Shown here: positions 819 to 26,232 of the stretch, one piece after another
Position numbering within the stretch: the stretch's first letter is position 1
Layout of the letters: every line of letters begins with the position of its first letter
DNA from: Candidatus Heimdallarchaeota archaeon
Lineage (GTDB): Archaea > Asgardarchaeota > Heimdallarchaeia > Heimdallarchaeales > Kariarchaeaceae
DNA: 26,574 nucleotides
Direction of reading: 5' to 3'
Assembly (NCBI GenBank): GCA_030149205.1
Contig: JASBSB010000011.1
Coordinates: 1-26,574, forward strand
The notes under the pieces: generated by a model
Seen by the model: the letters and a program-made list of their open reading frames with translations, nothing else
Databases searched by the model: none
What the model was told of the DNA's origin: nothing
Position numbers and translations under genes: made by a program

Positions 819-840
819 AAACATAATATTCTTCACACCC

Positions 841-965: not shown

Positions 966-1232
966 TCAAAGAAAGTTTAAAAGTAATTCTGGAGAATAAA
1001 TATTCACCACAGCAATATCTCCATTTTTTGTTTCACTGTACGCAAACTCCTCTCCATCAGGAAAAATGTATTGCTCCATCCCACGTCCGTTACTTTTTCC
1101 AAAAATCAAAAGAATATTTAGGTCTCCAATCCTAATTTCCTTCAACTCTGGGATGTCTCCGAAAGTCTCTCGAAGCATTTTTAACGCAGCAATACTTATC
1201 TGCCTGTTTTTCAATTTCAAGATACTTGACAC
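966..1232 (-). CDS. Small hypothetical protein, paralog B (88 aa, GTG start), distant member of the A family
   Basis: Gapless 13/34 identity to paralog A (QI..AA.K.LRE...E..I.DL...L), similar C-terminal hydrophobic pattern, same upstream motif. Confidence 0.75.
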   Translation of the reverse strand: MSSILKLKNRQISIAALKMLRETFGDIPELKEIRIGDLNILLIFGKSNGRGMEQYIFPDGEEFAYSETKNGDIAVVNIYSPELLLNFL

Positions 1233-1254
1233 AAATAAATTATCTTTAATCTGT

Positions 1255-1274
1255 CATATAACTGTTTCGACCAT
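1255..1274 (-). promoter_or_regulatory. Archaeal BRE-TATA promoter of paralog B
   Basis: Minus strand reads ATGGTCGAAACAGTTATATG; the last C of CGAAAC (1264) is 32 nt from GTG 1232. Confidence 0.65.
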
Positions 1275-1291
1275 CAGATATTTTTGTTTGA

Positions 1292-1564
1292 AAAACGGGA
1301 AGGAAACTTGCTACAAATACCATCAGAACATTAGTGAAAAAGTATGCTGCTAGTGCAGAGGTAAAGGCAAGCGGACACAAAACAGAGGTCACTCCTGTAA
1401 CTCTCCGTCACAGCTACGCCACTCATTTTACGGGCCTTGGAGTATCACCAATTGTCTTAGGTGAATTGATGGGTAATCCAACAGCAGTAAATAGGTACGC
1501 CCACCCAACTAAAGAGGCAAAACAAAGAGCTGCAAGGCTCATGGAGCCCACACAAAATGACTAA
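1292..1564 (+). pseudogene. C-terminal remnant of a tyrosine recombinase (XerC/D-like integrase)
   Basis: The frame of ORF 1334..1564 is open back to 1292: KTGRKLATNTIRTLVKKYA...VTPVTLRHSYATHF..LG...IVLGELMGN...NRYAH, matching box II (LRHS, LG[H], catalytic Y). An in-frame TGA lies at 1289-1291, no N-terminal half is present, and the HxxR His and GH His are substituted. Confidence 0.8.
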
Positions 1565-1997
1565 AAAAATTCGCAAAATAGGGGTTGGTTCTCAGAAAAA
1601 CCATATTTATAGAAAAATAATCGATAGAAAATTGAAACCTAAAAGAGATCAGCATCCAACAGTTGAATTCAGAATAAATATTGAATATCAAGGAGTCAAA
1701 AAAATTAAAGAGCTTGCTGAATTAGAACGAGTTACAATCAGTAGAAAAACACTTGAGAAACTATCAATGAAAAAAGGGCATTTATCTGTAAATGAAATAA
1801 GAGATGTACTTAAAGACCCAGACGGAATTTATTATAAACAAAATGGAAAGGAGGAAGTTTGGTTTTTTGTCAATGAGATGTCCAATACCAAGAAAGTGGT
1901 CGTAGTGATAGAACGAATGAATAAAAAACATAGGATAAGCACGGCTCACATATTAAAAAACAAATTTTTAAGCAAAAGATTAAGTGATTGGAATTGA
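1557..1997 (+). CDS. Putative BECR-fold (RelE/DUF4258/PBECR-like) nuclease or toxin, 146 aa
   Basis: Pattern ...KKGHLSVNEIRDVLKDPDGIYY...VWFFV...KKVVVVIE...RISTAHIL resembles the H-helix, P-x-x-hydrophobic, beta-meander and TA[HY] layout of BECR RNases. It overlaps the integrase remnant by 8 nt. By-eye call only. Confidence 0.5.
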   Translation: MTKKIRKIGVGSQKNHIYRKIIDRKLKPKRDQHPTVEFRINIEYQGVKKIKELAELERVTISRKTLEKLSMKKGHLSVNEIRDVLKDPDGIYYKQNGKEEVWFFVNEMSNTKKVVVVIERMNKKHRISTAHILKNKFLSKRLSDWN

Positions 1998-2282
1998 TTT
2001 GGGGGAAATAAACCTTTTAAGTCCATCATACCTGTCAAACTCAACCCAACAAAATCTTTTTTTGTTTCCTCTGACCCATACCAATTCAATCCCTTCCTCA
2101 TCTAATCCACCATCTACAACATCTTCTCCATCCCGTTCATAGATGAACAATGCAGAATCGGTGTCAATAAGGATATCAATGGGGATATCATTTAAATTTA
2201 GCTTTAATTTGAGGAATTTTTTAGCTGCTTCTATCACTTGATCCTCAGAGTAATTTTCCAATAAACGGTTCCTCATGATCAT
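1980..2282 (-). CDS. Small hypothetical protein, paralog A' (100 aa)
   Basis: 19/27 identity to paralog A at the N-terminus, plus a shared C-terminal W..F..YDGL..[YF]I motif. Confidence 0.85.
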   Translation of the reverse strand: MIMRNRLLENYSEDQVIEAAKKFLKLKLNLNDIPIDILIDTDSALFIYERDGEDVVDGGLDEEGIELVWVRGNKKRFCWVEFDRYDGLKRFISPKSIPIT

Positions 2283-2304
2283 AATTAATACTTCTATGTT
2301 CTCC

Positions 2305-2324
2305 TAATTAATTGTTTCGACCCT
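2305..2324 (-). promoter_or_regulatory. Archaeal BRE-TATA promoter of paralog A'
   Basis: Minus strand reads GAGGGTCGAAACAATTAATT; the last C of CGAAAC (2314) is 32 nt from ATG 2282. Confidence 0.65.
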
Positions 2325-2402
2325 CAATTATTTCTTAAGAATAGTATAGCTCATAAACACATTCTGTATTTTTGAGAGAGTATGTGCAGTATTCTACATT
2401 CC

Positions 2403-2513
2403 GTTTCAATATTGTTAGAACCCTTTTAGGGATCGAAGAAACTCGTAAAATTTCCCTTTATTCAATACTGTTCTTGGTTGGAACCAAGTTAGAACCTCTG
2501 CAAAAATTGATAC
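2403..2513 (+). CRISPR. Degenerate repeat-spacer-repeat mini-array
   Basis: 2403-2439 matches the array repeat at 30/37 with the hairpin intact; 2477-2513 matches at 24/37 with the hairpin broken. Both alignments are ungapped, and the copies are separated by a 37-bp spacer (2440-2476). Confidence 0.85.
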
Positions 2514-2535
2514 TCATAAGAATTGAAAAAATAAA

Positions 2536-3921
2536 TCAGAAGATATAGGAGGTGTAGTATATTTTACAGGTTGATCCTGGATATTTTATTCCCAGGGCAT
2601 ACTGGTGGCTTGAGTTTAAGATTTCTGTGGAGGTGATTTGAATCTGAGGTGGTGAGGACGGATTATATGGGAATTTAAACCACCTACCTGTCAAATGAAC
2701 ATCAACGTTATCTACAGTCAAGGAAATGTTGGTTAAGCACGCTAGCGGTAAAATTATATTGTTTTCAATCTGAATAGGGATGAGTGTATTAAATAACACA
2801 ACAGATAGTCCTGTAACATTCCAGGGAAAATCATAAAGTATTTCTCCGCTTAATACATTCTGGTTAAGTTTCTGGTTCACAAAATAATTTCCACTCTTTG
2901 CGGGGGAGTTAATGTAGTGTGTCTCATTAAATGCAATCAAATGCAGGCTGAGGCTGACTATTAGAAACAGGAGCAAGAAAAGTCTCAATCCAAAATATAT
3001 CCGGTTTAAGTTAAACTGAGGCCATCTTGATACTATCCCTCCTAAAATAATCCCTCCAGTTAACAAAAGGAGAATATTGAGGGGATAAGTAAGATTCTCT
3101 ATTCCTCGATTTATTGAGACTGTAAGATACACTGGCATGAGAAAGATTGTCACAGCACCCAAAACAAAGGTAAGAATTAGTTTTGTTTTAGCTCTGGTTG
3201 ATTTGTGGTTTAGACACCCTAACACAACAAGGTAAAAGCTGGCAAATATCAAAAATCCAAAGCCAAGGAGCTCAAAAACCGGTATAAATTTATGAGGTTC
3301 AAGTGGATAAAACCGTATAATAAGTATTCCTGTGTACACTAGCATAAAATCAATTATTAGGTCAACCAGAGACAATCTATGCACATACTTTTTCTTTAGC
3401 AATAAAAAGCTCTCACCAAAAATCACTGGGATCAGTATTAAAAATGAGATTAATGTAAGCTGCAAATAAATATTAGATAAGGGGATATACAACACAGTTG
3501 GGTAATCAAAGGTTAGAATAGCAAAAATTATAACAACATCTACCTCTAAAACAAAAATCCTAAAATAGTACATGGCTAACAAAATCAGTGCAAGACGGGA
3601 AAAATAGGGTGTGATCTTCCTGGGTTCATCTTTGTAATAAGATATAAGCACCCATAGCAGAAAAAGTAAAGTTGGTAAGAGAAGTATGCCAAAGTTGATT
3701 GATACCTGATCATTGACGATCTGGTAATCCTTGATAATGTATCCATTGATACGGTTTTCTTTGACATAGACAAGTCTGTATCTGAATCTCCAGAATATTG
3801 AGAAAATGATCAAGGAGACTAATGTGGAAATAAGACCTAACTGCTTTGATTTCTGTCTAATAAAACCTCTCTCCATGACCCCAAATAAAGAGCAGTTTTT
3901 TAAAGAAGGTGATATTTTCAC
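2536..3921 (-). CDS. Polytopic membrane protein (461 aa) with a C-terminal soluble domain
   Basis: Many hydrophobic segments; the C-terminal approx. 125 aa are hydrophilic and beta-rich with NxS/T sequons and two Cys. Confidence 0.8.
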   Translation of the reverse strand: MKISPSLKNCSLFGVMERGFIRQKSKQLGLISTLVSLIIFSIFWRFRYRLVYVKENRINGYIIKDYQIVNDQVSINFGILLLPTLLFLLWVLISYYKDEPRKITPYFSRLALILLAMYYFRIFVLEVDVVIIFAILTFDYPTVLYIPLSNIYLQLTLISFLILIPVIFGESFLLLKKKYVHRLSLVDLIIDFMLVYTGILIIRFYPLEPHKFIPVFELLGFGFLIFASFYLVVLGCLNHKSTRAKTKLILTFVLGAVTIFLMPVYLTVSINRGIENLTYPLNILLLLTGGIILGGIVSRWPQFNLNRIYFGLRLFLLLFLIVSLSLHLIAFNETHYINSPAKSGNYFVNQKLNQNVLSGEILYDFPWNVTGLSVVLFNTLIPIQIENNIILPLACLTNISLTVDNVDVHLTGRWFKFPYNPSSPPQIQITSTEILNSSHQYALGIKYPGSTCKIYYTSYIF

Positions 3922-4099
3922 ACAATTTCACACTGCAAAAAAACATATAAGTTCAAAATTAAATTAGTGTTGAAAATTTATTTGTTAACAATTCCGAAAA
4001 GAGTCAACAATTGAAATTGTTATGTAGGTCAGAATTTTCGACAACTCATACACATAATGATATCAAAATAAATTTAAGCCATCTATTTATAGTTGCAAA

Positions 4100-4534
4100 A
4101 TGAGCGACAAGGCAGAACGACCAAAAATTTATTCTCTTGAGCCCGTCTTACAGGTTAACAATTTACCAGAGACCCTGAGGTATTATGAGGAGACCCTCTG
4201 CTTCCACATCGACTGGGTCTGGCCAGATGATGACAAGCGAGACACAGCTGATCATGCTTCAGTCTCTTTGGGGCAGCAAGAGGGTGAGGAAGAGGAGCAT
4301 TCACACCATCACTCACATATACAGCTGAGCCAGGCAGATAAGACCCCTGTGGCAAACTCTGGCTGGCTGTACTTTAGGGTTGAGTCAGACATAGATGAAC
4401 TTTATGAGTTATTTAAAAGGGGAGGAGCAAGCATAAGCTCTGAGATAAACAGCTATCCCTGGGGTATGAGAGAATTTGATATTCGTGAGAACAATGGTCA
4501 TGTCTTCCGCTTTGGAAAGCCTGTGGAACAATAG
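4100..4534 (+). CDS. VOC/glyoxalase (bleomycin-resistance-like) family protein
   Basis: PVLQVNNLPETLRYYEETLCF at the N-terminus and LYFRVESDIDELYE...YPWGMREFDIRENNGHVFRFG at the C-terminus; acidic/His-rich insertion EEEEHSHHHSH. Confidence 0.9.
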   Translation: MSDKAERPKIYSLEPVLQVNNLPETLRYYEETLCFHIDWVWPDDDKRDTADHASVSLGQQEGEEEEHSHHHSHIQLSQADKTPVANSGWLYFRVESDIDELYELFKRGGASISSEINSYPWGMREFDIRENNGHVFRFGKPVEQ

Positions 4535-9909: not shown

Positions 9910-10845
9910 TCATATATCTTCTAAAGCAAAATCACTTAAGAAATCTTTCAAGCTGTTACTTGATTCTTTTCCATCTGTAAATGTTAATCCTCTATCCTCT
10001 TTAATCTCGATGAAATCAATTTGATCTGAGAATTTTTTTATCCTTTCGAGAAATCCACTGATATTTACTCTAGCATCTTCTGATCCTTTTAAATTTAACT
10101 CATTTTCAAGAACAAACCCTTTATCTAAATCTCCTATTTGGAAATCATTTTCTTTTGAAGCTACAGAAAGTAGTAATCTTGGAAGATGGTTAGTTTTACT
10201 ACGAGTGTTAATTCTTTTGGTACCATTCCATAAGCCATCATAGACATATTTTAGGTCGTCCTCAGTAAATCCAACCTCTTTAGCATTATGTTCACAAGCA
10301 ATCCCATGAAACTTAATTAAAGAGTAATCAAGAACATGGAATTCTCCAATTGACCCCTGTCCCTTTCCTTCCTCGGAGGCAATAGTTGAAGAAATGGTAA
10401 AAGAATTGATATTTGGTTTGTTCATTGATCTTGCAATTGAAAATTGAACTGGGCCTGTTAAGGCGACATTAGCATCTTTAACAGTACCAACAACACCAAA
10501 AGACCTGACATCAATAAATTTTTCAGGCAATGATTTTCGGATAAGTTCACGAGTATCTCCTTTCACCACTCCTATTTCTAACTCTTGTTTAATTAATTCT
10601 TTCATGGAGAGGACATTTCCTTTGTTTTCTCCTTCATCAGATTTAACAACTCTTCGAATGAGCACCTTGTTGTTTTCAGTTTCCCTTGTAAGCCAATAAT
10701 CTCTTATTGTGCGTTTTAACCTTAGATCAGTGACTATATTGTAATCATTCTCATCCATTCTAGGTCTGTTTTCATCATCGGGATCTCCATTAGGATTAGA
10801 GTCCCGTACATCATAAATAAATACTATTTCTCTTCTTTGTTTCAT
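9910..10845 (-). CDS. cas7: Cas7, type I-B (Csh2)
   Basis: SNPNGDPDDENRPRMD, VTDLRLKRTIRDY, FIDVRSFG, TGPVQFS and RSKTNHLPRLLL. Confidence 0.96.
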   Translation of the reverse strand: MKQRREIVFIYDVRDSNPNGDPDDENRPRMDENDYNIVTDLRLKRTIRDYWLTRETENNKVLIRRVVKSDEGENKGNVLSMKELIKQELEIGVVKGDTRELIRKSLPEKFIDVRSFGVVGTVKDANVALTGPVQFSIARSMNKPNINSFTISSTIASEEGKGQGSIGEFHVLDYSLIKFHGIACEHNAKEVGFTEDDLKYVYDGLWNGTKRINTRSKTNHLPRLLLSVASKENDFQIGDLDKGFVLENELNLKGSEDARVNISGFLERIKKFSDQIDFIEIKEDRGLTFTDGKESSNSLKDFLSDFALEDI

Positions 10846-11354
10846 ATTTGTTCCTCCATATCTTCCGTTTCAGAAGGTTCATTTTCTTCTTCTTCAGATG
10901 GATTTAGTTGTGCCAATGAGCTATCAAATCCCATTTGGAATGAAATACCAAGATCATATTGATTCTCTTTAAACTCATTGATATCTTTTAATAAGTCAGA
11001 AATTCTGTTTCTAAGATCAGATTTCATAACGTACGTACTTTTTTCTTTAGAAGCAATTTTTTGTAATACTGAGTTACAATTGTTAATCATAATTTTGAGT
11101 TTCGTTTCATCTATTCGTCTAGTTAAGTTAGGAAGGTTCTTTATTAGACTAGATGTTTTAAGCATTTTTTTCTGAAGAAAAGAACTGATAGAATAATATC
11201 TTCCAACAAGATAGCTTATCTGTCTTTCTGGCTTATTATTGAAATATTCTGTCTTAAAGATTTCATCAAGAAATCTGTTATCCTCTATTAATTTCTGTTT
11301 GAAATTTTCTTTTTTATTGATTTTTTCTAGATTTTCCTCTGACATATTGTTCAC
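10842..11354 (-). CDS. cas11: Stand-alone Cas11b small subunit (equivalent to the Cas8b C-terminal domain); true start may be ATG 11345
   Basis: Helical 170-aa protein between cas8b and cas7. SYLVGRYYSISSFLQKK and ISFQMGF match the FLxG..L...Q and F..G motifs of the Csh1/TM1802 C-terminus. GTGA overlap with cas8b. Confidence 0.75.
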   Translation of the reverse strand: MNNMSEENLEKINKKENFKQKLIEDNRFLDEIFKTEYFNNKPERQISYLVGRYYSISSFLQKKMLKTSSLIKNLPNLTRRIDETKLKIMINNCNSVLQKIASKEKSTYVMKSDLRNRISDLLKDINEFKENQYDLGISFQMGFDSSLAQLNPSEEEENEPSETEDMEEQI

Positions 11355-13647: not shown

Positions 13648-14868
13648 CTATTCCTTTACCCACCTCTGGATCTCAGCCTCCAGGTTACTCAGATCTTTTC
13701 TTCCGAACACCTTGACAGATCTATCCACTAGGTAATCTCTGACCTCGTTCTCCAATGCACTTTTGTTATCCGAGAGACATACCAACCCAAAGTATGTCTT
13801 CCAGCCAGCAATCTGTGTGGAGCGGATCATGACCTCAAATATCTTTTTCTTCAGCTCAGATTTTCCACCTCTCTTTGAATCTGAGACTGTGGAGACAGAA
13901 ACCACATACACCCGGTTTTTAACCAAAAACACCATGTCTAGCTCAAATTCAGGATCTTTGCTAGAGATGTTGGTTTTGAAGTCATCAATCACTCCTAACC
14001 TTGTAAGGTTTGAAAGTGCATCTGCTACGCGACTCTCGAGCCAGAACCCATCAAACCATTCTACAAGCTTCTTAATCCTCCTGAACTGAAGCTGTTTGGT
14101 TAGATCTGCGAGTCTGACCTTTTGGTTATTTGGATGTATCAGTTGCTTTAGCTCAGGGATATCAGCAAATGAAATTTCAATTCCATGTAACTCGGTCTCA
14201 GGTTTAACTTTCCTGTTTTTTTTCTTGTAAGCCTTTCTCAACTGTTTAGATTTGAAATTGAGCCACCTCTTATCATTCTCTTGTTTGCTTAGCAACTTGA
14301 TTAATGCATCGACCACCTTTCTTTGCTCATTTTTCAAAGGGACAGTTGGATCAAACTTTGTGTCCTGATGAAGTGATATAACCTCAGAAACTGTGAATGG
14401 AAGATTGATCTCCTCTTCATGAGTTTCAAGGCTTGGTACCTTAGTGATGATGAGACTCCAGGGTTTTCCCCGTATGTAAGAGATGACAAAATCTGCGTTT
14501 ATTCTCTGTAGATAAAAGAGTGTTGCCATTAACATTGGCTTGGTACCACCGGTGGAATCAAAATGGACATAAGGTTTTTGTGGGTGATTAAATACCGGAT
14601 CAAGTGACATTTTGAGTTCTTTCAGAATCTCCCCTTGATCAAATGGTGGGACTTCAATTCCAAGGATCTGTTGTTCCTTTCCCCTCTGATCTCTCTTCTC
14701 CTGAAAATTTCTTTTCCATTGTAATATCCTTGAAAAGATCGGCTCATTAGCCTTGGTGTACAGAATAAAGACATGGGGGGTGTCAGAGAAGAGTTTGATA
14801 ACTGTGACAGGAACAATTGGATTGGATCCTAAAAGGGTGATGAGTACACTTGGTTTCTTAAGTGTCAA
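13648..14868 (-). CDS. CARF + DUF1887 (PD-(D/E)xK-like) nuclease, Card1/Can2-like
   Basis: N-terminal CARF motifs LITLLGSNP and FDSTGGTKPM; C-terminal FDGFWLE...ELDMVF....VYVVSVST...KKKIFE...RSTQIAG...GLVC. Confidence 0.8.
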   Translation of the reverse strand: MTLKKPSVLITLLGSNPIVPVTVIKLFSDTPHVFILYTKANEPIFSRILQWKRNFQEKRDQRGKEQQILGIEVPPFDQGEILKELKMSLDPVFNHPQKPYVHFDSTGGTKPMLMATLFYLQRINADFVISYIRGKPWSLIITKVPSLETHEEEINLPFTVSEVISLHQDTKFDPTVPLKNEQRKVVDALIKLLSKQENDKRWLNFKSKQLRKAYKKKNRKVKPETELHGIEISFADIPELKQLIHPNNQKVRLADLTKQLQFRRIKKLVEWFDGFWLESRVADALSNLTRLGVIDDFKTNISSKDPEFELDMVFLVKNRVYVVSVSTVSDSKRGGKSELKKKIFEVMIRSTQIAGWKTYFGLVCLSDNKSALENEVRDYLVDRSVKVFGRKDLSNLEAEIQRWVKE

Positions 14869-14961
14869 TTGTAAATGATTATTCGCTGTATGGTTATATA
14901 GTTGAGGACTTCTAGATAGTTATTTCAATATTCCTTAGATGAAACCTCTCAAATACCTGTG

Positions 14962-15621
14962 TTAATTTTCCATTAGAGCAACCAGAACCTTTCCTGTATC
15001 TGTCAGAGAGACGAGCCTTTCCTTTCCCTGATAGTCAGATTCAATCAGGTCCTGGTTCTCAAATTCTTTGATATATCTTGTCATTGATTGAACAGTTCTA
15101 AGCCCAGTTTCCTTTTTGAGTAGGGAGAGGGAAATGGGTCTGTTAATCTCTCCCAATGTTTTAATAATTTTCAGGCGGGTGTCTCTGAAATCTCTGGTAG
15201 ACACTCGGGGCATAGGTACCCAAATAAGCTCTCCTATACCATCGTCCTCACGAAGTTTTTTGAGATAAAAAACAGGACTTGCGGTCATATATCCAACGAG
15301 AAGAAGTGCTGAGGTCATTATTTTTGTCCCTCCAGTCATATTTAGTGTGATCTTCAGCTTGGGGTCACTCTGGTATTTTTTACGAACCTTCTTGATTCCT
15401 TCAATCATGTTAAGAAGGCAGTTCATAAGATCAAATTTATCTATAATATGATTGTAGACCTTAATACGTAGTGGGTCATTCTCATAAAACTTCTTTATGG
15501 ATGCCAGTTCTGGAGAGTCATCAGAATCAGTGAACAGATGGATTTCATCCATCGGAACATGCCTAAGGGCATTGAGCACCACATCTGGTGACTTCCCTAG
15601 ACTGGCAAATTGTACTCTCAT
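14962..15621 (-). CDS. csa3: Csa3-like CARF-wHTH transcriptional regulator
   Basis: CARF motifs FASLG and LNMTGGTKIM; C-terminal winged helix SLSLLKKETG...QSMTRYIKEFENQDLIE...GKERLVSLTDTG. Confidence 0.85.
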   Translation of the reverse strand: MRVQFASLGKSPDVVLNALRHVPMDEIHLFTDSDDSPELASIKKFYENDPLRIKVYNHIIDKFDLMNCLLNMIEGIKKVRKKYQSDPKLKITLNMTGGTKIMTSALLLVGYMTASPVFYLKKLREDDGIGELIWVPMPRVSTRDFRDTRLKIIKTLGEINRPISLSLLKKETGLRTVQSMTRYIKEFENQDLIESDYQGKERLVSLTDTGKVLVALMEN

Positions 15622-15642
15622 AAGTAAATAAATCCAGTAAGG

Positions 15643-15705
15643 TTATTTAATTTGTTGTTTATTATAAACTGATTTTGTTTAATGTCTGCATAATGTATTT
15701 AATAT
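15643..15705. promoter_or_regulatory. Divergent csa3/viperin promoter region with central palindrome GTTTAT-T-ATAAAC (15657-15669)
   Basis: TATA-like TTAAATAA (minus strand, 15650-15643) about 25 nt from csa3 ATG 15621; TTTAATAT (plus strand, 15698-15705) about 25 nt from viperin ATG 15726; a 6-bp inverted repeat lies between them. Confidence 0.5.
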
Positions 15706-15725
15706 ATTGCTGTCAGTTTATTGTT

Positions 15726-16649
15726 ATGAGTAACAGCTCAAACCAACCAGAAATCATTCCAAAACCCCCCGTCATTGAACTCATCCCTAAAAACATCCCT
15801 ATCATCGACTATAAACCAGAAATCAAACTTTCTCGAGATTTAATCTCAGTGAATTATCACATCATCAAAGCCTGTAATTACCGTTGCGTCTTCTGCTTTG
15901 CAAAATTTAATCAGGTGTCAAGAAACTATCTCTCCTTGGAAGATTCTAAGAGTATTATTCAAGAATTACATCTATTTGGGACTGAGAAGATCACTTTTGT
16001 TGGAGGTGAACCTACCCTGGTACCTCATCTTCCAGAACTTGTTAGCTATGCCAAATCACTAGGATTGACTACAATGATAGTAACAAACGGAACCAAACTA
16101 TCTGAGGAATATTTGAAAAGGTTTAACGGGAATCTAGACTGGGTTGGTCTGAGTATCGACAGTGGAAAGGAAGACATAAACAGAGAGTTAGGACGAGGAA
16201 ACGGTTCTCATGTGTCGCAAACATTGAAAAATGTAAAACTTTTAAGGGAGTTTGGTATTAAAATTAAAATAAATTCTGTGATTAACCTGTTAAATTGGCA
16301 GGAGGATATGTCTTGGTTAATTGAAAGCATTAACCCATTCAGATGGAAGGTCTTTAAGCTGTTACCTATCGAAGGAGAAAATGATGAATCAAAGCATCTG
16401 GAAATCTCTGATGAACAGTATTTTTCGTTTATTCAAAACCACAGGCATCTGAATCCCGTTGTTGAGACCAACGATGCGATGACAGACAGCTATGTGATGA
16501 TTGATCCAAATGGCTGCTTTTTCAATAACTCAAATGGGAGGTTGAATCATGGGCCACCGATTTTAGCAGTTGGTGTCGAAAAAGCCTTTAGCCTTTCAAA
16601 CTTTCAAAAAGAAAAATTTGAGGCAAGAGGAGGTGTGTATAAATGGTAG
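15726..16649 (+). CDS. pVip: Prokaryotic viperin (RSAD2-like radical SAM, ddhNTP synthase); likely start ATG 15726 rather than TTG 15675
   Basis: SVNYHIIKACNYRCVFCF (CX3CX2C), KITFVGGEP, TNG, DWVGLSIDS, KINSV, RWKVFK.L..EGEN and SYVMIDPNG.F are viperin-type motifs. Confidence 0.92.
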   Translation: MSNSSNQPEIIPKPPVIELIPKNIPIIDYKPEIKLSRDLISVNYHIIKACNYRCVFCFAKFNQVSRNYLSLEDSKSIIQELHLFGTEKITFVGGEPTLVPHLPELVSYAKSLGLTTMIVTNGTKLSEEYLKRFNGNLDWVGLSIDSGKEDINRELGRGNGSHVSQTLKNVKLLREFGIKIKINSVINLLNWQEDMSWLIESINPFRWKVFKLLPIEGENDESKHLEISDEQYFSFIQNHRHLNPVVETNDAMTDSYVMIDPNGCFFNNSNGRLNHGPPILAVGVEKAFSLSNFQKEKFEARGGVYKW

Positions 16650-17365
16650 ATGTCAAACTTTCGAAAATTGTTATCAAGTATGGTGGAAGTCAGTTGTATG
16701 ATGAATCAGGAACAATTCTGCCAGAAAGATTTAAACTTCTTGCAGAACTTATTATAAGGCTTTGTGACACAGGCATCTCTACCTATGTGGTTTTAGGCGG
16801 GGGGAAACCAACGAGGGATATTGTTCAAAAATTCTCCCGATCCCTCGTAAATTCTAAGTTTGGACTTAATGCAACACAACTTGACCATATTTCCATTGAG
16901 GTGACAAGGATTCATTCTCAGTTGTTAAGATTCATGTTATCAGGTAAAATGGAAACAAGGTTTGTAACTAGGTATGAGGAATTATTTGATGAGGTTCTTC
17001 CCTCTACAGTTACAGTGGCTGGAGGTCTCTTTCCTGGTCAATCAACTAATGGAACAGCTGCGTTGGTGTCAGAAGCAGTAGAAGCTGATCTGTTAGTCAA
17101 TTTTTTTGGATTTGACAATATTCACTCAGAAGACCCAACCACAAATAGGAAAGGTAAAACTCTGACATCACTGTCATATGAAGACCTCAACAAATTAATT
17201 AGTGGGTTTAAGCAAGAGCCAGGCCATTATGAGCTGTTTGATCTCTTGGCATTGAACTACGTAAAGAGGTCAAAGATTCCGGTTTTATTTCTTAATGGGA
17301 ATAATCCTCTTAAGCTTAAAGAATATCTCTCTGGAACGAAATTGGGGACGTTGGTTAAAGCATGA
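16643..17365 (+). CDS. Archaeal-type uridylate kinase (PyrH, amino-acid-kinase fold) homolog, diverged
   Basis: KIVIKYGGS, VVLGGGK.TR, VAGGLFPGQST...AAL..E...ADLL, EDP and final GTLV; overlaps viperin by 7 nt. Confidence 0.88.
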   Translation: MVDVKLSKIVIKYGGSQLYDESGTILPERFKLLAELIIRLCDTGISTYVVLGGGKPTRDIVQKFSRSLVNSKFGLNATQLDHISIEVTRIHSQLLRFMLSGKMETRFVTRYEELFDEVLPSTVTVAGGLFPGQSTNGTAALVSEAVEADLLVNFFGFDNIHSEDPTTNRKGKTLTSLSYEDLNKLISGFKQEPGHYELFDLLALNYVKRSKIPVLFLNGNNPLKLKEYLSGTKLGTLVKA

Positions 17366-17547
17366 ATGAAAATAAACTACCAACCTGTTCATCTGTATAT
17401 GTTCAGAATATAGCTCATTTAAATGACAGCATTCTTTTTTATTTAACAATTTTTCACATTGGAACAAGAAATCTTTTGAACTGTAAGTTTAAATTGGTCT
17501 TAGGATTTATTTTTCCTGAGTATTTGGTAAGGAGGGTGAAAAAATGA
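17362..17547 (+). CDS. 61-aa ORF bridging the kinase and helicase genes; may not be a true protein gene
   Basis: ATGA start/stop overlaps at both ends (17362-17365 and 17544-17547); no recognisable motif. Confidence 0.3.
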   Translation: MNENKLPTCSSVYVQNIAHLNDSILFYLTIFHIGTRNLLNCKFKLVLGFIFPEYLVRRVKK

Positions 17548-20354
17548 GTTCCAACCTATATTACAGAAATCTACCAGAAGTACCTAGTGACAAAGCTGCA
17601 CGAGCAATTAAAATAAGTACAGATAAAACTCTTACCCCTTTTTTTAATTATTATCTTACCTATAGAAAGCATGAGACTGAGAAAGTCTTTGAGGTAACCT
17701 TGAAGCTTATTGAATGGAATGAATTTTTTGTAAAATATGATCTAAACAATCGAAAAAATCAATTAGAATCAAAACTCAAAACTTACGGTAAAGTACCTCA
17801 AGAATTGAGAGAAATTAGAAAATTCATCGAGTATAGAAACACCAATAATTTGGGATTATACATGATTGATATAACTGATGAAACAGTCGATGATGAAAAA
17901 GCATTAAGGGAAATAACTGGAAGAGATACAATTCTTTCTCTAAGTCGGTCTGTGAGGACAGAGAGCAAACTAAACTATGAACATATCTCAAGAAGATATG
18001 ATGTCATAGTCATGAAGATTTTTTATAATAAGAAGGGAGGTAACGAAGGATCATCAGTCAGAATTCCCAGAGAATCAATCAAGGTTTACTATAAACCTAA
18101 TGTCAAGGTTCTAAACTTACTTATTAATGCACTGGAAAAACTTCAAAATACTCCTGCAGTACACAACCGACCTCTTTTAAAATTATTCGAAAACAGGTCA
18201 AGGGTACGTTTTGAAATCCCTGTGAAAGCAACAATTAGAGATAATGAATGGTTATTTCTAACGGATCAAAGTAGATCTGGGAATGATTTACAACGTGAAT
18301 TTGTAAAAATGGCTATTGAAACCCCTGATTTTGCTATTCTGGACGGACCACCTGGATCAGGGAAGACTACAACTATATTAGAATTAATTTATCAACTTGT
18401 GATTCGGGGTCAGAAGATACTTATGGTAGGATCAACTCATGCGGCGGTGGATAATGTAATAGAGAAATTAATGGACCCAGACTTCTCATATAGAGAAGCA
18501 CTAGATGACTTAGTTTTACCTATTCGGATTGGAAATCCTGAATATCATTCTATATCTGATTTTGCTGCAGATTATACAGAAGGTGAGTTATGGAAGACAA
18601 AAAGGGCTGAACAACTGGAATGGTTGGCTTCAATTCAGAATAAGACAGAATCACAGGAAGAGTTTGAACAAATGCTACTAAACAAAAAGGACTCTAGTAT
18701 CTTGAAATTTTCTGTTTTACGTTCCACATCACTTACCTGTGCAACAACTGCTGGGATAACCAATCATTCAATGATCAGAGCGAATTCTAATGGAACTTCA
18801 ACCAACAAACCCTTTTTTGATTTTTTGATCCTAGATGAGGCCAGTAAAACCACATTTCAAGAATTTTTAATTCCTGCCCTTTACGCAAAAAAATTTATTA
18901 TAATTGGTGACGTTTTACAATTATCTCCATTTGTTGATGAGGATGGCTTATCATCAAATATAGGTAGCGTATTAGATTTTTCTGAGGAACAGAGGTATTG
19001 GGCTACTGTCGTCAATAATTTTTTCCAGATCAATGCTTCACCAAAACGAGCGTTAATACTTTATGACCACAAAGAATCTAATTTAATTTATGATGCTTTC
19101 AGGGGTTCTAAGTACAATATAGCCCCTCTTACCACCAAGAATCAAGATTATGTGTTTGCGGATATAATTTTCGCTACAAAATCTGATTTAAAAAAATATC
19201 ACGATCTACTTCCTTCAACACTAACACTTTTTTTGGACGCAAGAACATCTGAAGGTAAAAGCTTTTTTGTTCGAGATTCAAAATTCATCCCAATCACGAA
19301 CAACTTAAGTCATTTTCCCATCCTATATCAATATCGAATAAACTTTGTTCAACAGAAAAACAAAGAGAGGAAAAAGTCGTTAACATCAATACTTCATATA
19401 AGATCCCAAGATGATACATGGGCTGATGCTCTAAGTTGGAGGTTAATTCGGTTGAACGAAATTGAAAAAAACCCAACAAACTCTAATGAGTATCAGAACA
19501 GGCTATTAAACAGCATCATAAATCTTTTGCCGAAGGATGACAAAATTAGAAAAAAAATAGAAAACGAGATTGGAGACATGTATGAAATTGCCCTTCCTTC
19601 AATTCTTAAGCTCTTACAGGAAGGTTTAGGTGAGACCAAATTTAGACCAAAATCTGATATAACAACGACACTATCTTCAGGGTTACCAGAAGAAGCATTA
19701 AAAGCAAGGTATGTTCGATTAACCCATCAAAATCGCATGCATCCAGACATAAGTAAATTTGCCCGAGAAACATTCTATGAGAATCAAGCATTGCATGATT
19801 CAAATCGCCTAAATAGAGGTCTCCCCCTTTATCCTCTATATAACAATAAACGGATGGTATGGATTGATGTTGTTAACAAAACCCAAAGTGATCCAACTGT
19901 AAATAAACAAGAGATCAATCGTGTCTTCAAGGAACTTATTCAGTTATTAAAATACTTACAGAGATTTTCTGACCAGAATTGGAGTATTGCAGTATTGACG
20001 TTTTACAAGCGACAACGTCGTGAATTACTTAATGAATTTGATAAGAATCCAGAATTTAAGAAATTCAAATCCAAAAACTTCTACCCCAAAAATCAAAAGA
20101 ATATTCAAATTAAGATTGATGTAGTTGACTCATTCCAAGGACAGGAGGCGGATTTTGTGTTTCTATCTATGGTTCGAACGTTTGGGATTGGATTTCTTGA
20201 CAATCCGAATCGGTTAAATGTTGCTCTAACCAGGGCTAAATATCAACTCGTAATACTGGGTGATAATAAGCATTTCAAGAAACAAACCAGATCAGCTCAT
20301 CTTAAAAAGCTGGCTGAAATACCATCAGAAAGAGGAATAACTTATGATAATTAG
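17544..20354 (+). CDS. Upf1/DNA2-NAM7-like superfamily 1B helicase (936 aa)
   Basis: DGPPGSGKTT, STHAAVDNV, LDEASK, IGDVLQLSP, RMHPDI, VLTFYKRQ, VDSFQGQEAD and NRLNVALTRAK; SD-like GGAGGGTGA upstream. Confidence 0.95.
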   Translation: MSSNLYYRNLPEVPSDKAARAIKISTDKTLTPFFNYYLTYRKHETEKVFEVTLKLIEWNEFFVKYDLNNRKNQLESKLKTYGKVPQELREIRKFIEYRNTNNLGLYMIDITDETVDDEKALREITGRDTILSLSRSVRTESKLNYEHISRRYDVIVMKIFYNKKGGNEGSSVRIPRESIKVYYKPNVKVLNLLINALEKLQNTPAVHNRPLLKLFENRSRVRFEIPVKATIRDNEWLFLTDQSRSGNDLQREFVKMAIETPDFAILDGPPGSGKTTTILELIYQLVIRGQKILMVGSTHAAVDNVIEKLMDPDFSYREALDDLVLPIRIGNPEYHSISDFAADYTEGELWKTKRAEQLEWLASIQNKTESQEEFEQMLLNKKDSSILKFSVLRSTSLTCATTAGITNHSMIRANSNGTSTNKPFFDFLILDEASKTTFQEFLIPALYAKKFIIIGDVLQLSPFVDEDGLSSNIGSVLDFSEEQRYWATVVNNFFQINASPKRALILYDHKESNLIYDAFRGSKYNIAPLTTKNQDYVFADIIFATKSDLKKYHDLLPSTLTLFLDARTSEGKSFFVRDSKFIPITNNLSHFPILYQYRINFVQQKNKERKKSLTSILHIRSQDDTWADALSWRLIRLNEIEKNPTNSNEYQNRLLNSIINLLPKDDKIRKKIENEIGDMYEIALPSILKLLQEGLGETKFRPKSDITTTLSSGLPEEALKARYVRLTHQNRMHPDISKFARETFYENQALHDSNRLNRGLPLYPLYNNKRMVWIDVVNKTQSDPTVNKQEINRVFKELIQLLKYLQRFSDQNWSIAVLTFYKRQRRELLNEFDKNPEFKKFKSKNFYPKNQKNIQIKIDVVDSFQGQEADFVFLSMVRTFGIGFLDNPNRLNVALTRAKYQLVILGDNKHFKKQTRSAHLKKLAEIPSERGITYDN

Positions 20355-21396
20355 CTTTACAACATCCTTTACTACATATAAAATTGCAGCTCTTGCTGAA
20401 ATTGGTGTGGAAGGTGAGGATAAAGGGTATATGGTCTATCTCAAAGCCATAAAAGAGGCTCAAGGATCAGATCCGATGAAATACCTAAAAGAAAACCTAT
20501 TGAAAAAATTTCCAAAAACAACATCATATAATGTAATAACAGAGCTGCAAGCATTACAGTTAGTTGATGAATATGGAAAAATAACAAGTGTTGGAGAAGA
20601 TGCACTTCAAACTGAAACAATTTACTTCCCAAGCAGGGGTATCTTTAATTTCGAATTTGTTAAAAATACTCCCATGAAATCTTCTGTTATTGATATTACA
20701 GAAAACCGTTCCAAATTAATTAAAGAGGTTAATGTTTCGGACGAAATTGATATAGACCAAGGGCAAAGATTCAAGTTATTGGATGGGAGAAATATAGTAG
20801 TATTAAGTTTAGAAGAAAAGGGACAAAAGGTAAAAGAAAATTCTACCAGATCAAAAATTGTTTGTGAATTTGTTCATGATGGTGGATGGAGCCTTTGGGT
20901 CAGAACGAACAGCAATGACAAGATAAAAGTAGAATTATCAGATGAATTTATACAGCTTAACATCCATGAACGGATATTCGAATATTACAAGAAAAACCCC
21001 TATGACGACGACTCGATCCTGGTAAAGTTTGATGAGCTTAATGAAAAAGAGCTTCAAACCTTTAAAGGAAACAGAGTAGTCAAAGATTTAAAAATTCCAG
21101 AGTATAACCTTAGTGTAAATTTACAAATTGAGGATATAAAATTGTTTCCAGCCAACTCTCAAGAAGCAATTAAGTGGGCACTAAAACTCTTCACATCAAA
21201 TTACATGGGCTCATATTTAACACAGTCAGAGTGTGTGAATCTTTGGCAAGAAATGGTAAAAGAAATTCCTGAGTTTCAGGTTTATCCAGACCTGTATAAT
21301 ATTAGCTTTGAGACAATGTTAAAAGAAATTTTAGATACCTCAAAAAGCAAATTTTTGGTGGCACCTATAGATTTTAGATTGGAGGGTCTGGTGTGA
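20344..21396 (+). CDS. Hypothetical protein (350 aa), possible N-terminal winged helix
   Basis: Overlaps both neighbours (11 nt and 4 nt); ELQALQLVDEYGKITSVGEDAL resembles a wHTH wing motif. Confidence 0.7.
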   Translation: MIISFTTSFTTYKIAALAEIGVEGEDKGYMVYLKAIKEAQGSDPMKYLKENLLKKFPKTTSYNVITELQALQLVDEYGKITSVGEDALQTETIYFPSRGIFNFEFVKNTPMKSSVIDITENRSKLIKEVNVSDEIDIDQGQRFKLLDGRNIVVLSLEEKGQKVKENSTRSKIVCEFVHDGGWSLWVRTNSNDKIKVELSDEFIQLNIHERIFEYYKKNPYDDDSILVKFDELNEKELQTFKGNRVVKDLKIPEYNLSVNLQIEDIKLFPANSQEAIKWALKLFTSNYMGSYLTQSECVNLWQEMVKEIPEFQVYPDLYNISFETMLKEILDTSKSKFLVAPIDFRLEGLV

Positions 21397-22910
21397 TACC
21401 AACAAAGACGATTTCTAAAACCATTATCAATCACAAAGTCTTAAAAGGATTTTGGGAGATAAAAGAAAAAGACATTAACAATAGGAGCAAAGATAATGTA
21501 ATTCAAATGGGATTTGGAGATACAACAGTTAAAAAATTAATTTTGGAGTATATTACAAATGCCAAGGAGCATATCTTCCTTGCAAGTTTCATCCTTAGTG
21601 ATGATGAAATTGTAAAAGCTCTTCAGAACTCAACCAGTCGAGGTGTTAGATTTTATGTTTTGACCTCTAACGAGGCTCTTTTGGAGAAAGAGAGAAGGAC
21701 AGACAACTCAGAATTCACTGAATCTGTGGTGAACCATCATAAAAGTATCATTAAAAAATTGGAAAAGAGTGGATTGGTTAGAGGTTCACCGTTCCTTCAT
21801 GCAAAGTTCGTATTGGTTGATGTATTCTCAAACCCTAGAGGAGTCATGCTAACCTCTAATATCACTACAGAGGCTCTTACGAGAAATCCTGAGCTAGCAA
21901 TGATATTGCAAAAAGATCAAGTGAGTGAGCTGTTTAACATTTATCGATATGTTTTCTGGTCTCAAGCAGATCAGGAGCTAGCCAATCAAAAATGGGGCAA
22001 ATTCGAAAAGAGAAATGTACCACTTAAGTACTCTACTAAAATCATCACAACAATCAAAGGAAAAAACACATTGGAGAGGGATTTAATTAACTTACTTAAG
22101 CGATCTAATGGTAAGGTATACGTTGGCTCTTACAAACTCACAAAAAGCACAGACTTTTTTAAGGCTCTACTTGATTACGGTGAATCCAATGAGGTTGTCC
22201 TTTTTACAAGATTGCATCCTGCAAACCAAGAAGTCTATGATATTTTAACAGGCAAACCTAACTTTTCTCTTTACGCAGCAAAATATTTTCATGCAAAATT
22301 TGTTGTAACAAATATCGAGGGATTAATTATGACAGCAAACTTAAATGAACAATCTTTTGATGATGGATTTGAGGTAGCAGTAAAAATAGGATCAACAAAA
22401 GCATTTTCAGATATTGCAGATGAATGGATCAAATCACTGGAATATGAATTCATCCATCAAAAAGAGGTCTCTAAAATTAACTCTAAGCATGTGAAGATTT
22501 ACGACAAGCAAAAGTCGTCTTTCAATCAATTAGAGATTACTGAAAAGAATTTTTATGAAAACAAAGTTACAGAATCTATTGAAGAGTATCTACAAATGGA
22601 TGAAAATAGTATAAGAATCCCAACGTTAAACTATCAGAAATCAATTACAGTTACTTATAATGTAGAACCACCTAAGCTTCCTAAAGATGCTACAGAGATA
22701 AAGAAAAAAAGTGACCTAAAAAATCCAAAAATTCTGAAAGAATTTGAAGAGCTACTCTTTGACAAAAAAGATAGAAGTATTGTTCCACTTTATTTCTACA
22801 AGAATAAACTTTATTCTCCAGTAAAAGATATCAAAGCCTACGAAAAAACAAAGAAGAATACAACAAACATAACATCAGAGATGTTTAGTGTTGTAAGTGA
22901 AAGGATTTAG
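21393..22910 (+). CDS. Tandem phospholipase D (HKD) superfamily protein, probable nuclease
   Basis: HAKFVLVD...LTSN and HAKFVVTN...MTAN; HIFLASF motif; GTGA overlap with the upstream gene. Confidence 0.88.
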   Translation: MIPTKTISKTIINHKVLKGFWEIKEKDINNRSKDNVIQMGFGDTTVKKLILEYITNAKEHIFLASFILSDDEIVKALQNSTSRGVRFYVLTSNEALLEKERRTDNSEFTESVVNHHKSIIKKLEKSGLVRGSPFLHAKFVLVDVFSNPRGVMLTSNITTEALTRNPELAMILQKDQVSELFNIYRYVFWSQADQELANQKWGKFEKRNVPLKYSTKIITTIKGKNTLERDLINLLKRSNGKVYVGSYKLTKSTDFFKALLDYGESNEVVLFTRLHPANQEVYDILTGKPNFSLYAAKYFHAKFVVTNIEGLIMTANLNEQSFDDGFEVAVKIGSTKAFSDIADEWIKSLEYEFIHQKEVSKINSKHVKIYDKQKSSFNQLEITEKNFYENKVTESIEEYLQMDENSIRIPTLNYQKSITVTYNVEPPKLPKDATEIKKKSDLKNPKILKEFEELLFDKKDRSIVPLYFYKNKLYSPVKDIKAYEKTKKNTTNITSEMFSVVSERI

Positions 22911-24693: not shown

Positions 24694-26232
24694 TTAATAG
24701 CTATAAGGTACGCAAACCCCATTGAGCATTCTTGCCAATTGAATTGACTGGTTGTGCAGGACTATTATTGATTCATTAACGGTAATTTTCAACCAAAGTC
24801 TATCTGTGGGCTGATAGGCCTCATAGAATATACTTGACTCAAAATTACTAATCGAGATAAAAGATGTATTGCTTGCAACCTTTGTGACATTATAGCATTT
24901 ATCCACCACGATGGAGTTTGGGGTCTTTCTTATAAGAACAATATTCGAAAAGGAAACATAACCAGAATACTCCTGTGAACCAGAGATGTACCCTTCAATG
25001 TTCGTCCCATTTACTGAGGTAGTATTAAAGTATCTTTGATACTCTACCTGGAATTGATTTGTGTTTATTGCAGCAAGCATTGATCCCCCCATTATTGCGA
25101 AAATCAGGGACATTATAGTTAAGCATCCAATTACAGTTAGCTTGTTCCCATTCATCCTAAAAAGTCTGAGATTTATTCTCTTGAAAATAAACGTTGCTAA
25201 TATTGCTAAAACTAATAGAACACTGAATTGAATAACTTGGTTTCCTAGATTTATCAAAAATGTGTAAATAGATTGATCTGGGGTGTAAAAAATTGCTCCA
25301 AACAGTATTATCGCTACAAAGAACTGTGAATAGACTAGTATGAACTTTAAAGCCTTGTCAGTGTAAGGTTTTTTTAACTTGAGTTTGGCCATTATTTTAG
25401 TATGAATTTTGTTGGTCACCTCATTCTCAAAAAAGTATGAAAAGGAGAGTAATATTAAAAACAAAAGCAACTGATCTAGAAAAAGTTTGACCTGATCAAA
25501 TGTTTTCCCTAACTCTGGAAATCCAATGAGAATATAAAGAAGGGTAAAATCTATATTTGCAGCAGCAACCAGAAGAAGCAGATAAAATTCAACCAAAGAA
25601 CCTTTGCTCTGCTGTGTTGGAAATTTAGCTATTTCTTCAATTACCTCTGGATAGGTCTTAAGCTTTATGGCGTTCTTCTGTTTTGAGAGCTTATGAATAA
25701 AAATTCCGATGTATACAATAATTAAGCCTAAAAGAGAAACAAGGATTGAATATTCTAATATCAAAACAGCTTTACTCTGTAGCTGGATTATGATTTTGGA
25801 AGTTATATTCGAACTTGAATGGTTAAAAGTGAGCAAATACCCTAAAGATCTTAGCATACTATAAGAAAAACTCCGAATTGAATTTTGAACAAACAATATT
25901 AAAACTGCTAATGGATAGTACAGATACTCGAATGACGGTGCATTGTTTATTTTCTTATGTCCATATATGATACGCCCTATCCCGTACAAACAAAACCCAA
26001 TAATAATATAGGAAATTTCAGAAAATTTTGGAATCACAGTTGTGTTAGTTTTTAGTAGGTATATGTTTGGATGTAAGTATTCATAGTAAAAGATACTCCC
26101 CTGAAACCTGAAATCAATAAATGAGGCAAGAATAATTAGAAGATAAAACACGGTCTCCAATATGTAAACCTGCTGAATCTTTCTAATTGATCTAATCCTC
26201 ACCAATATTTTTTTCAATAGTTTTTTTTTCAC
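24694..26232 (-). CDS. Polytopic membrane protein (512 aa) with a C-terminal soluble domain
   Basis: Many hydrophobic segments; the C-terminal domain is rich in NxS/T sequons and has two Cys. Confidence 0.8.
   Translation of the reverse strand: MKKKLLKKILVRIRSIRKIQQVYILETVFYLLIILASFIDFRFQGSIFYYEYLHPNIYLLKTNTTVIPKFSEISYIIIGFCLYGIGRIIYGHKKINNAPSFEYLYYPLAVLILFVQNSIRSFSYSMLRSLGYLLTFNHSSSNITSKIIIQLQSKAVLILEYSILVSLLGLIIVYIGIFIHKLSKQKNAIKLKTYPEVIEEIAKFPTQQSKGSLVEFYLLLLVAAANIDFTLLYILIGFPELGKTFDQVKLFLDQLLLFLILLSFSYFFENEVTNKIHTKIMAKLKLKKPYTDKALKFILVYSQFFVAIILFGAIFYTPDQSIYTFLINLGNQVIQFSVLLVLAILATFIFKRINLRLFRMNGNKLTVIGCLTIMSLIFAIMGGSMLAAINTNQFQVEYQRYFNTTSVNGTNIEGYISGSQEYSGYVSFSNIVLIRKTPNSIVVDKCYNVTKVASNTSFISISNFESSIFYEAYQPTDRLWLKITVNESIIVLHNQSIQLARMLNGVCVPYSY

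Follow-up and report, generated by a model that had tools for sequence, protein, structure and literature searches.

The stretch at positions 13,648 to 22,910 of the window analyzed here (the whole 26,574-bp contig C11 of a Heimdallarchaeota genome) carries a viperin gene that is followed by genes for a nucleotide kinase, a helicase, an adaptor protein and a phospholipase D (PLD)-family nuclease, with a CARF-domain regulator and a CARF nuclease encoded divergently in front of it. We consider it probable that the genes of this block form a single composite antiviral unit, governed by a sensor and belonging to Heimdall-group Asgard archaea. The genome (3.3 Mb in 12 contigs, 93.5% complete with 2.8% contamination) contains an archaeal small-subunit rRNA gene (1198 bits), and the host is a Heimdall-group Asgard archaeon. 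The preliminary description of this DNA, made from its letters alone, had called the block notable if the host should prove to be an Asgard archaeon, and the taxonomic check bore this out.

The gene coordinates given at that stage matched open reading frames (ORFs) at all positions, and the two divergent transcription units do share one short control region, the spacer between them measuring 104 nt (Table 1). Every junction of the right-hand unit is an overlap, as had been proposed: the five junctions overlap by 7, 4, 4, 11 and 4 nt, so that the five genes and a 61-aa ORF among them are translationally coupled. This small ORF was rejected as a gene of the system, since it is absent from all related loci; in three loci (L034, L035 and L188) the kinase gene abuts the helicase gene directly with no intervening ORF. 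It is probably a mere spacer bearing the ribosome-binding site of the helicase gene (GGAGGGTG).

The block recurs in other Asgard genomes. Among 400 Asgard genomes searched for viperin, 27 were viperin-bearing, and up to 10 kb per side was fetched for 20 loci, with which all proteins of the window were compared (genomes, loci and families are cited below by our G, L and f numbers). The helicase gene comes immediately after viperin in 11 of the 27 genomes, namely the host and ten others (G047, G053, G052, G051, G074, G015, G011, G018, G082 and G081), and the carriers span four families (f1, f3, f5 and f7). Where the contig continues, a gene of ~366 aa and a PLD gene come after the helicase, and a divergent gene for a CARF protein with a winged helix-turn-helix (wHTH) stands in front. 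The six-gene layout was also present on a JGI metagenome contig, and the layout was found in at least 13 independent loci. Because identity to the window across the linked loci is 41-65% for viperin and 32-51% for the helicase, the recurring layout represents old synteny rather than recent copying. The preliminary description had weighed a linked system against independent modules accumulated in one island; the synteny check shows the order regulator-viperin-helicase-adaptor-PLD recurring across four Asgard families, and for positions 13,648 to 22,910 this linkage contradicts independent accumulation.

In a reverse test, the viperin alignment was compared with one genome per species (185,579 species) and the best 80 loci were kept. 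Among these 80 loci, the link to a helicase or PLD gene occurred only in 10 Asgard records. The operon was not found among them in bacteria (Myxococcota, Bacteroidota, Cyanobacteriota, Planctomycetota and others) or in non-Asgard archaea; one Poseidoniaceae locus had a partial helicase match ~6 kb away on the opposite strand. In L044 (genome G011), a gene for a 163-aa Zc3h12a/NYN-type RNase (10459-10950 of that locus) lies between the regulator and viperin on the viperin strand and is another optional member of the block.

Table 1. Features of the viperin block and its control region (positions in the window).
Feature	Positions	Strand	Basis or remark
CARF + PD-(D/E)xK-type nuclease (DUF1887, Card1/Can2 family), 406 aa, putative ligand-activated effector	13648..14868	-	PADLOC CARF4--CARF_PDDEXK
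Csa3-like CARF-wHTH regulator, 219 aa, divergent from viperin operon	14962..15621	-	PADLOC CARF3
Shared 104-nt control region of two divergent promoters	15622..15725	.	Read directly; core conserved in orthologous spacers
Perfect palindrome GTTTATTATAAAC, 13 nt, candidate operator site 1	15657..15669	.	Conserved position
Second, half-related site GTTTAATGTCTGC, candidate operator	15677..15689	.	~20 nt centre-to-centre from site 1
TATA-like box TTTAATATAT	15698..15707	+	~24 nt ahead of viperin ATG (15726); near-invariant in orthologous spacers
Prokaryotic viperin (pVip), radical S-adenosylmethionine enzyme	15726..16649	+	NF038283, PADLOC pVip
PyrH-like paralogue (UMP-kinase-type, amino-acid-kinase fold)	16643..17365	+	PF00696
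61-aa ORF	17362..17547	+	No match in Pfam, PADLOC or NCBIfam; unique in genome
Upf1-like superfamily 1 (SF1) helicase, MkoA-like, 936 aa	17544..20354	+	AAA_11/AAA_12, PADLOC MkoA
350-aa adaptor, family without a name	20344..21396	+	Winged helix within beta-rich body, conserved C-terminal tail
Two-lobed PLD-family nuclease with C-terminal extension, 505 aa	21393..22910	+	PLDc_2

The first gene of the operon is a clear viperin. Its product scored 303.4 bits against NF038283 (cut-off 180), with the match covering residues 57-319 of the 324-aa ORF, and matched the PADLOC pVip model at 9e-89. A look-up of the protein gave no exact record. The cluster motif CxxxCxxC reads CNYRCVFC at residues 50-57, and C50, C54 and C57 are invariant in the 11 linked orthologues, among which 56 columns are invariant altogether. 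The host encodes a second viperin at C5:729-1559 (L037), which is 57% identical and lies on a 9.2-kb contig.

The kinase encoded directly after viperin matched PF00696 (7e-17), and its best PDB match was the archaeal UMP kinase 2j4j. A search for related loci with this single protein as the query gave none. Against the archaeal UMP-kinase model TIGR02076 it scored 135 bits, below the cut-off of 158, whereas the housekeeping pyrH product encoded elsewhere in the host (C2:575796), to which it is 33% identical, scored 219 bits and thus over the cut-off. The two proteins share the fold's nucleotide-binding motifs, namely K12-x-G-G-S, G52-G-G, R58, D81, G127-G-x-x-P-G-Q-S-x-N and D158. The paralogue is found after viperin at loci of family f1, and the loci in which it stands beside viperin are L034, L035, L036, L038, L056 and L188. 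The viperin of L036 (genome G045, 2248-3927 of that locus) is a 559-aa protein with an N-terminal extension of ~280 aa, and its gene is followed by that of a PyrH-type kinase and by no helicase gene. Because the kinase gene there adjoins a viperin gene that lacks the other partners, the kinase belongs with viperin and not with the helicase, adaptor and nuclease. The kinase of the window is therefore a PyrH paralogue of the amino-acid-kinase fold that is dedicated to viperin.

Published viperin-associated kinases are P-loop nucleoside monophosphate (NMP) kinases related to CMPK2, and the survey that described them searched the P-loop NMP-kinase superfamily only (Shomar et al., bioRxiv 10.1101/2023.09.13.557418). 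Like the prokaryotic viperins with kinases and like the RSAD2-CMPK2 pair, the block has a viperin-family enzyme with a nucleotide kinase gene directly after it. Unlike the known pairs, its kinase has the PyrH-type amino-acid-kinase fold, and its viperin gene is translationally coupled to those of the helicase, adaptor and PLD nuclease under a CARF regulator. The parallel to inducible RSAD2-CMPK2 of animals that had been suggested for this operon thus stands as an analogy, in that a nucleotide kinase does follow viperin, but not at the level of the kinase itself, a PyrH paralogue with a fold unlike that of CMPK2 and the NMP kinases. By this comparison, the likeness to CMPK2 is convergent and does not reflect homology.

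The remaining three genes of the operon encode a helicase, an adaptor and a nuclease that appear together elsewhere. The helicase matched AAA_11 (7e-33), AAA_12 (4.5e-38) and the PADLOC MkoA model (2.3e-81), and it weakly matched the NCBIfam model of a "PLuB system". Its ATPase motifs are intact, with a Walker A motif GPPGSGKT at residue 268 and DEAS at residue 431. No Ser/Thr-kinase domain was among the Pfam matches of the 936-aa protein, whose residues 1-240 had no match. The nuclease matched PLDc_2 (6e-19), and its best PADLOC matches were to DrmC-type models. H136, K138, D143 and N156 as well as H300, K302 and N316 are invariant in 11 orthologues and form two HxK half-sites.

The adaptor had no match in Pfam, NCBIfam or PADLOC. 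At E<=1e-3, its family has 857 cluster representatives, almost all of them ~370 aa long. The AlphaFold2 (AF2) model of the adaptor has a predicted local distance difference test (pLDDT) score of 82.5 and contains a winged helix at residues 25-92 that resembles MarR-type domains (Z 9.3). In a wide structural search this winged helix alone was matched and the body was not; Foldseek found nothing for the fold in the PDB at E<=0.001, and the adaptor profile gave only chance-level ribosomal matches among the PDB sequences. Bacterial clusters annotated as "hypothetical" in the ESM Atlas share the shape of the adaptor, with template-modelling (TM) scores of 0.72-0.79.

The adaptor family was present in 28 of the same 400 Asgard genomes, and 17 further loci were fetched. 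The helicase gene is adjacent to the adaptor gene in all 17 and the PLD gene in 14, and CARF genes, as recognized by the regulator profile, occur at nine. The only viperin among them (genome G142) lies 2.4 kb off and is divergent. In L059, a distant relative of the adaptor (P0100) is encoded at 323-4393 together with a ~368-aa gene, a 132-aa gene and an AAA+ ATPase of the sigma-54-activator type; no pair of helicase and PLD genes was found in that context.

A complex prediction for the adaptor and the PLD nuclease scored 0.83, and the best of three controls scored 0.00. Of 80 solved complexes, 58 reached this mark, as did 2 of 110 mismatched pairs; these figures apply only roughly here, since our own alignments were used. 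The prediction runs shared at least 96% of their contacts, and the partner had a pLDDT of at least 82. In the predicted contact, the adaptor tail (residues 336-350, with invariant A340 and D343) lies on a surface of the nuclease that contains invariant R86, Y88, F188 and W189. The prediction thus supports binding of the adaptor tail to the PLD nuclease.

Judging from these neighborhoods, the helicase, adaptor and nuclease are a Mokosh-like unit in their own right that is also found without viperin. Mokosh type I pairs a helicase, MkoA, with a nuclease of the PLD family, MkoB (Millman et al., bioRxiv 10.1101/2022.05.11.491447). Genes for a COG1112/Upf1-like SF1 helicase and a PLD-family nuclease likewise stand side by side here, and the Walker A/B and HxK motifs of the trio are intact. 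In contrast with that two-gene system, three genes are present, with an obligatory winged-helix adaptor between helicase and PLD. The trio also differs from Mokosh type I in that no Ser/Thr-kinase domain was detected in its helicase, that its PLD protein had no MkoB model match (E<=0.01) and that it is accompanied by CARF regulators and, in Heimdall-group archaea, headed by viperin. The trio thus defines a three-gene, adaptor-containing relative of Mokosh that was not called by the PADLOC models scanned.

No other gene in the block is as well conserved as that of the regulator, with 59-68% identity in L034, L188 and L189. It matched the PADLOC CARF3 model at 4.4e-25 and the Csa3 model TIGR01884 at 22.3 bits, below the cut-off of 60.2. 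Its AF2 model (pLDDT 89.8) comprises an N-terminal CARF domain and a C-terminal winged helix in one chain, and the top PDB matches, over 225-231 columns, were 6wxq (Csa3 with cyclic tetra-adenylate, cA4; E 3e-9, TM 0.63/0.65), 2wte and 6w11. Among nine orthologues, G9 and T96-G97-x-T99 are invariant, the CARF loop reading T-G-G-T. The regulator thus resembles Csa3 of Sulfolobales (2wte, 6wxq and 6w11) in its two-domain chain, in its whole-chain best matches (TM 0.63-0.67), in belonging to the PADLOC CARF3 group and in being divergent from the genes that it presumably controls. It differs from Csa3 in sequence, with 16-18% identity and a score under the TIGR01884 cut-off, and in being linked to a viperin/Mokosh-like operon rather than to cas genes. 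We regard it as Csa3-like by architecture and not as an equivalog. The regulator of L040 (genome G074) has the reversed domain order, wHTH then CARF, and represents an independent way of performing the same task.

Alignments of the spacers of orthologous loci showed a conserved core with diverged flanks. Palindrome site 1 is kept at the same position in L034, L056, L038 and L189; the loci of family f1 together with L189 keep GTTTAyNrTAAAC-like sites, and the region of site 2 corresponds to a block, TTTGTTTAwTGTC, that is conserved in alignment A3. At the same place, families f3 and f7 carry paired palindromes specific to them (TTGTATAATACAA and TTTTATnATAAAA), followed by TTTTAATAT. The exact pattern GTTTAYNRTAAAC has six copies in the 3.3-Mb genome, of which only the one at 15657-15669 lies outside an ORF. 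With mismatches allowed, the pattern was not enriched in the window (9 found compared with 7.5 expected), so the argument for an operator rests on position and conservation and not on counts. A second exact copy, GTTTACTATAAAC, lies at 18084-18096 inside the helicase gene, so that two of the six genomic copies are on the 26.6-kb contig; it may be due to chance or may be an internal regulatory site.

The TATA-like box would be a promoter element by comparison with the archaeal promoter consensus. Its spacing of ~24 nt from the ATG favors this start over a TTG located further upstream, and it points to an mRNA that begins near 15726 with little or no leader. The palindrome pair lies directly upstream of the TATA-like box, a position that would fit an activator, and it also abuts the promoter of the regulator gene itself. 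An activating, a repressing and an autoregulatory role may each be envisaged.

The gene behind the regulator encodes a protein that matched PADLOC CARF4--CARF_PDDEXK at 3.8e-51 over residues 7-406, with a weak match to Can2 (7bdv) in its nuclease half. Family-invariant residues are T106, G107, G108, T109 and K110 of the CARF loop and E278, E309, D311, S324, K340 and E345. The position aligned to the ExK motif of Can2 reads S-V-S, with the serine invariant in the Asgard subfamily, and an E-x-D is present (E309 and D311). In common with Can2 and Card1 (7bdv and 6wxw), the protein has one CARF domain and then a restriction-endonuclease-like domain, is ~400 aa long and belongs to the DUF1887 family. 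It differs from them in that S-x-S/T replaces ExK throughout the Asgard subfamily, with the six acidic, serine and lysine residues named above conserved instead, and in being encoded with a viperin operon rather than at a type III cas locus.

No homologue of the 406-aa protein was found in the 20 fetched Asgard viperin loci. Its nearest relatives in a protein search were Heimdallarchaeota proteins annotated as DUF1887 or Card1_endonuc, and the genes of the two closest homologues (45% and 40% identity) sit directly behind a Csa3-like gene that is divergent from a viperin operon. The nuclease slot is filled in L188 (GCA_026702845.1, an 866-kb contig), where the kinase is present, and in L189 (GCA_024278115.1), where the kinase is absent. 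This recurrence in the same slot upholds the pairing of CARF sensor and nuclease that had been proposed. In L049, L050, L040 and L056, the block comes with a stand-alone CARF gene (162-194 aa) that overlaps a gene of 348-371 aa. In L056 this CARF gene lies downstream of PLD, whereas in the other three loci it is next to the regulator; the 348-371 aa partner scores as PIN above the Pfam cut-off in one case. The slot beside the regulator is empty in L043 and L044. A position that holds a CARF sensor and a nuclease, and in which the effectors can be exchanged, is thus part of the block.

The mechanism that we propose starts from what the sequences show: which genes are present, that their motifs are intact, that they are translationally coupled, that the layout recurs as a whole and that operator-like sites are conserved. 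We infer which ligand is bound, whether transcription is turned up or down, which nucleotide is produced, which nucleic acid is attacked and any cross-talk of the viperin product with the trio. As a dimer, the Csa3-like CARF-wHTH regulator would occupy the palindrome pair at 15657-15689, immediately ahead of the TATA box of viperin. With a small molecule bound as a signal in its CARF pocket, the regulator would change transcription of the coupled operon. The leading candidate for this signal is cyclic tetra- or hexa-adenylate from the type III CRISPR system of the host. Viperin would then make a 3'-deoxy-3',4'-didehydro-nucleotide chain terminator, with the dedicated PyrH-type kinase feeding its supply of pyrimidine nucleotides. 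The trio would act against invader nucleic acid, which the Upf1-like helicase may engage and the two-lobed PLD nuclease, held by the winged-helix adaptor, may degrade. The CARF nuclease behind the regulator would be a post-translational arm that answers the same kind of signal.

A source of cyclic oligoadenylate exists in the host, since contig C8 has a cas locus of type III (III-D-like) that encodes a 496-aa Cas10 with GGDD. This locus (C8:12500-20000; L003 4527-11813) contains several Csm3-like genes, a Csm2-like gene and Cas6, and its Cas10 is unusually short; no HD domain was recognized in this protein. Cyclic oligoadenylate might therefore serve as the trigger in the host. The Cas10 palm domain was found in three of the ten other carriers (G015, G011 and G052) and not in six (G074, G047, G081, G018, G051 and G082), a negative result that is weakened by the incompleteness of metagenome-assembled genomes (MAGs; completeness is 99% for G074, 94% for G047 and 90% for G081). 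Because the palm domain is missing in six of ten, including the 99%-complete G074, type III cyclic oligoadenylate is not a universal signal of the block. We therefore take seriously, without favoring it, the possibility that the CARF regulator senses no CRISPR-made cyclic oligoadenylate and responds to another ligand, such as a product or by-product of the operon's enzymes or another nucleotide signal, or that it is a ligand-independent autoregulator. Besides the carriers without a detectable Cas10 palm, the CARF genes at 9 of the 17 further Asgard trio loci and the low score of the regulator on TIGR01884 (22 bits compared with a cut-off of 60) are in keeping with this alternative. However, the CARF loop T-G-G-T is invariant, the whole-chain fold is best matched by cA4-bound Csa3, and many loci encode a second CARF protein together with a nuclease, as in type III signaling. 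The GGDD Cas10 of the host and the fact that most carriers are incomplete MAGs likewise argue for a cyclic oligoadenylate.

Apart from the carriers in which no Cas10 palm was found, several observations weigh against the block as one composite unit. Its modules can also be found apart: 16 of the 17 further loci have the trio and no viperin, as does a metagenome contig with CARF-wHTH, DUF559, helicase, adaptor and PLD genes, viperin and kinase occur without the trio in L036, and no partner genes were found near the second host viperin on its 9.2-kb contig. The linked viperins fall into at least three clades of a quick, weakly resolved tree, and viperin and trio may have been joined, or separated again, on more than one occasion. 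In addition, the canonical ExK is absent from the whole CARF nuclease subfamily, and the PLD nuclease gave no match to the PADLOC MkoB models at the threshold given above. We think it rather unlikely that viperin (with its kinase) and the Mokosh-like trio are merely co-regulated and mechanistically independent, sharing timing and joint transfer with no biochemical hand-over. This explanation would account for the trios without viperin, for the viperin-kinase pair of L036, for solo viperins in bacteria and in the host genome and for the scatter of linked viperins over the tree. On the other hand, the 4-11 nt overlaps and the gene order have been kept over deep divergence in four families. Persistence of order alone does not demand biochemical coupling, and mechanistic independence differs from the composite unit only in the last step of our proposal, the one from viperin product to trio.

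That the block is a chance neighborhood of unrelated defense genes gathered in an island beside CRISPR-Cas appears most improbable. Defense genes do tend to cluster, and neither the type I-B cas genes nor the CRISPR array beside the block recurs as a neighbor; nevertheless, the at least 13 independent loci, at the viperin identities given above, and the conservation of overlapping junctions and operator sites contradict this explanation for positions 13,648 to 22,910, so that it holds for the CRISPR-Cas neighbor only. Returning to the composite unit, its most far-reaching form is an "interferon-like" program in which a transcription factor that senses a second messenger would switch on one mRNA for viperin, for a kinase that feeds it substrate and for the helicase and PLD nuclease. 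The two arms would cooperate in that the helicase-adaptor-PLD complex would recognize and destroy viral nucleic acids left chain-terminated or stalled by the viperin product. We regard this form as doubtful; if true, it would prefigure, in prokaryotes, antiviral gene expression that is induced by a signal and linked to RNA surveillance.

Upstream, the block adjoins type I-B cas genes (Cas8b, Cas7b, Cas5b, Cas3b and Cas6). The preliminary description had included a type I-B CRISPR system beside the block; the cas genes are indeed there, but the association did not recur at the loci whose flanks were read, and we rejected type I-B CRISPR-Cas as part of the unit. No cas1, cas2 or cas4 was recognized within the window. 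A CRISPR array at the contig start (window positions 1-517) has seven 37-nt repeats (GTTGCAATCGTGCTAGAACCCTTTTAGGGATTGAAAC) and runs into that start; its first two repeat-spacer units are identical, so that one spacer is present twice. An eighth repeat, degenerate in sequence, is located at 2403-2440, ~1.9 kb from the array. Three ORFs of the window had no match in Pfam or PADLOC: 24694-26232 (512 aa), for which NCBIfam gave no match either, 2536-3921 (461 aa) and 10842-11354 (170 aa). The last of these lies between cas8b and cas7b, in the position expected of a small subunit.

Asgard viperins and Mokosh have each been described, separately. The words "kinase", "operon", "neighbo" and "CARF" do not occur in the main Asgard defense paper, and a 2026 survey of archaea lists viperin with a TPR partner as its only archaea-specific type. 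Within a literature coverage that was incomplete, we found no description of the viperin-helicase-PLD join, of its CARF control or of a PyrH-type viperin kinase. The same incomplete coverage yielded no paper on viperin plus Csa3 in a meaningful sense, none on CARF with Csa3, PLD and helicase or on the "PLuB system", only reviews for pVip with CARF, and nothing on viperin with PyrH or UMP kinase beyond the NMP-kinase study. The catalytic parts of the block thus all belong to known families, and it is for their combination and control that no description was found.

In animals, viperin is induced by a signal and paired with a kinase, and the enzyme is reportedly among the few immune enzymes passed from Asgard archaea to eukaryotes. 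The block would mean that, in archaea closely related to eukaryotes, viperin has a regulator of its own that senses a small molecule. The kinase that viperin has to itself is of an unrelated fold and hence a convergent solution, and viperin is joined to a machine of helicase and PLD nuclease with domains reminiscent of Upf1/MOV10L1 and Zucchini. Taken together, with its candidate operator, its regulator and its candidate ligands, the block may offer a compact, testable case of inducible archaeal innate immunity.

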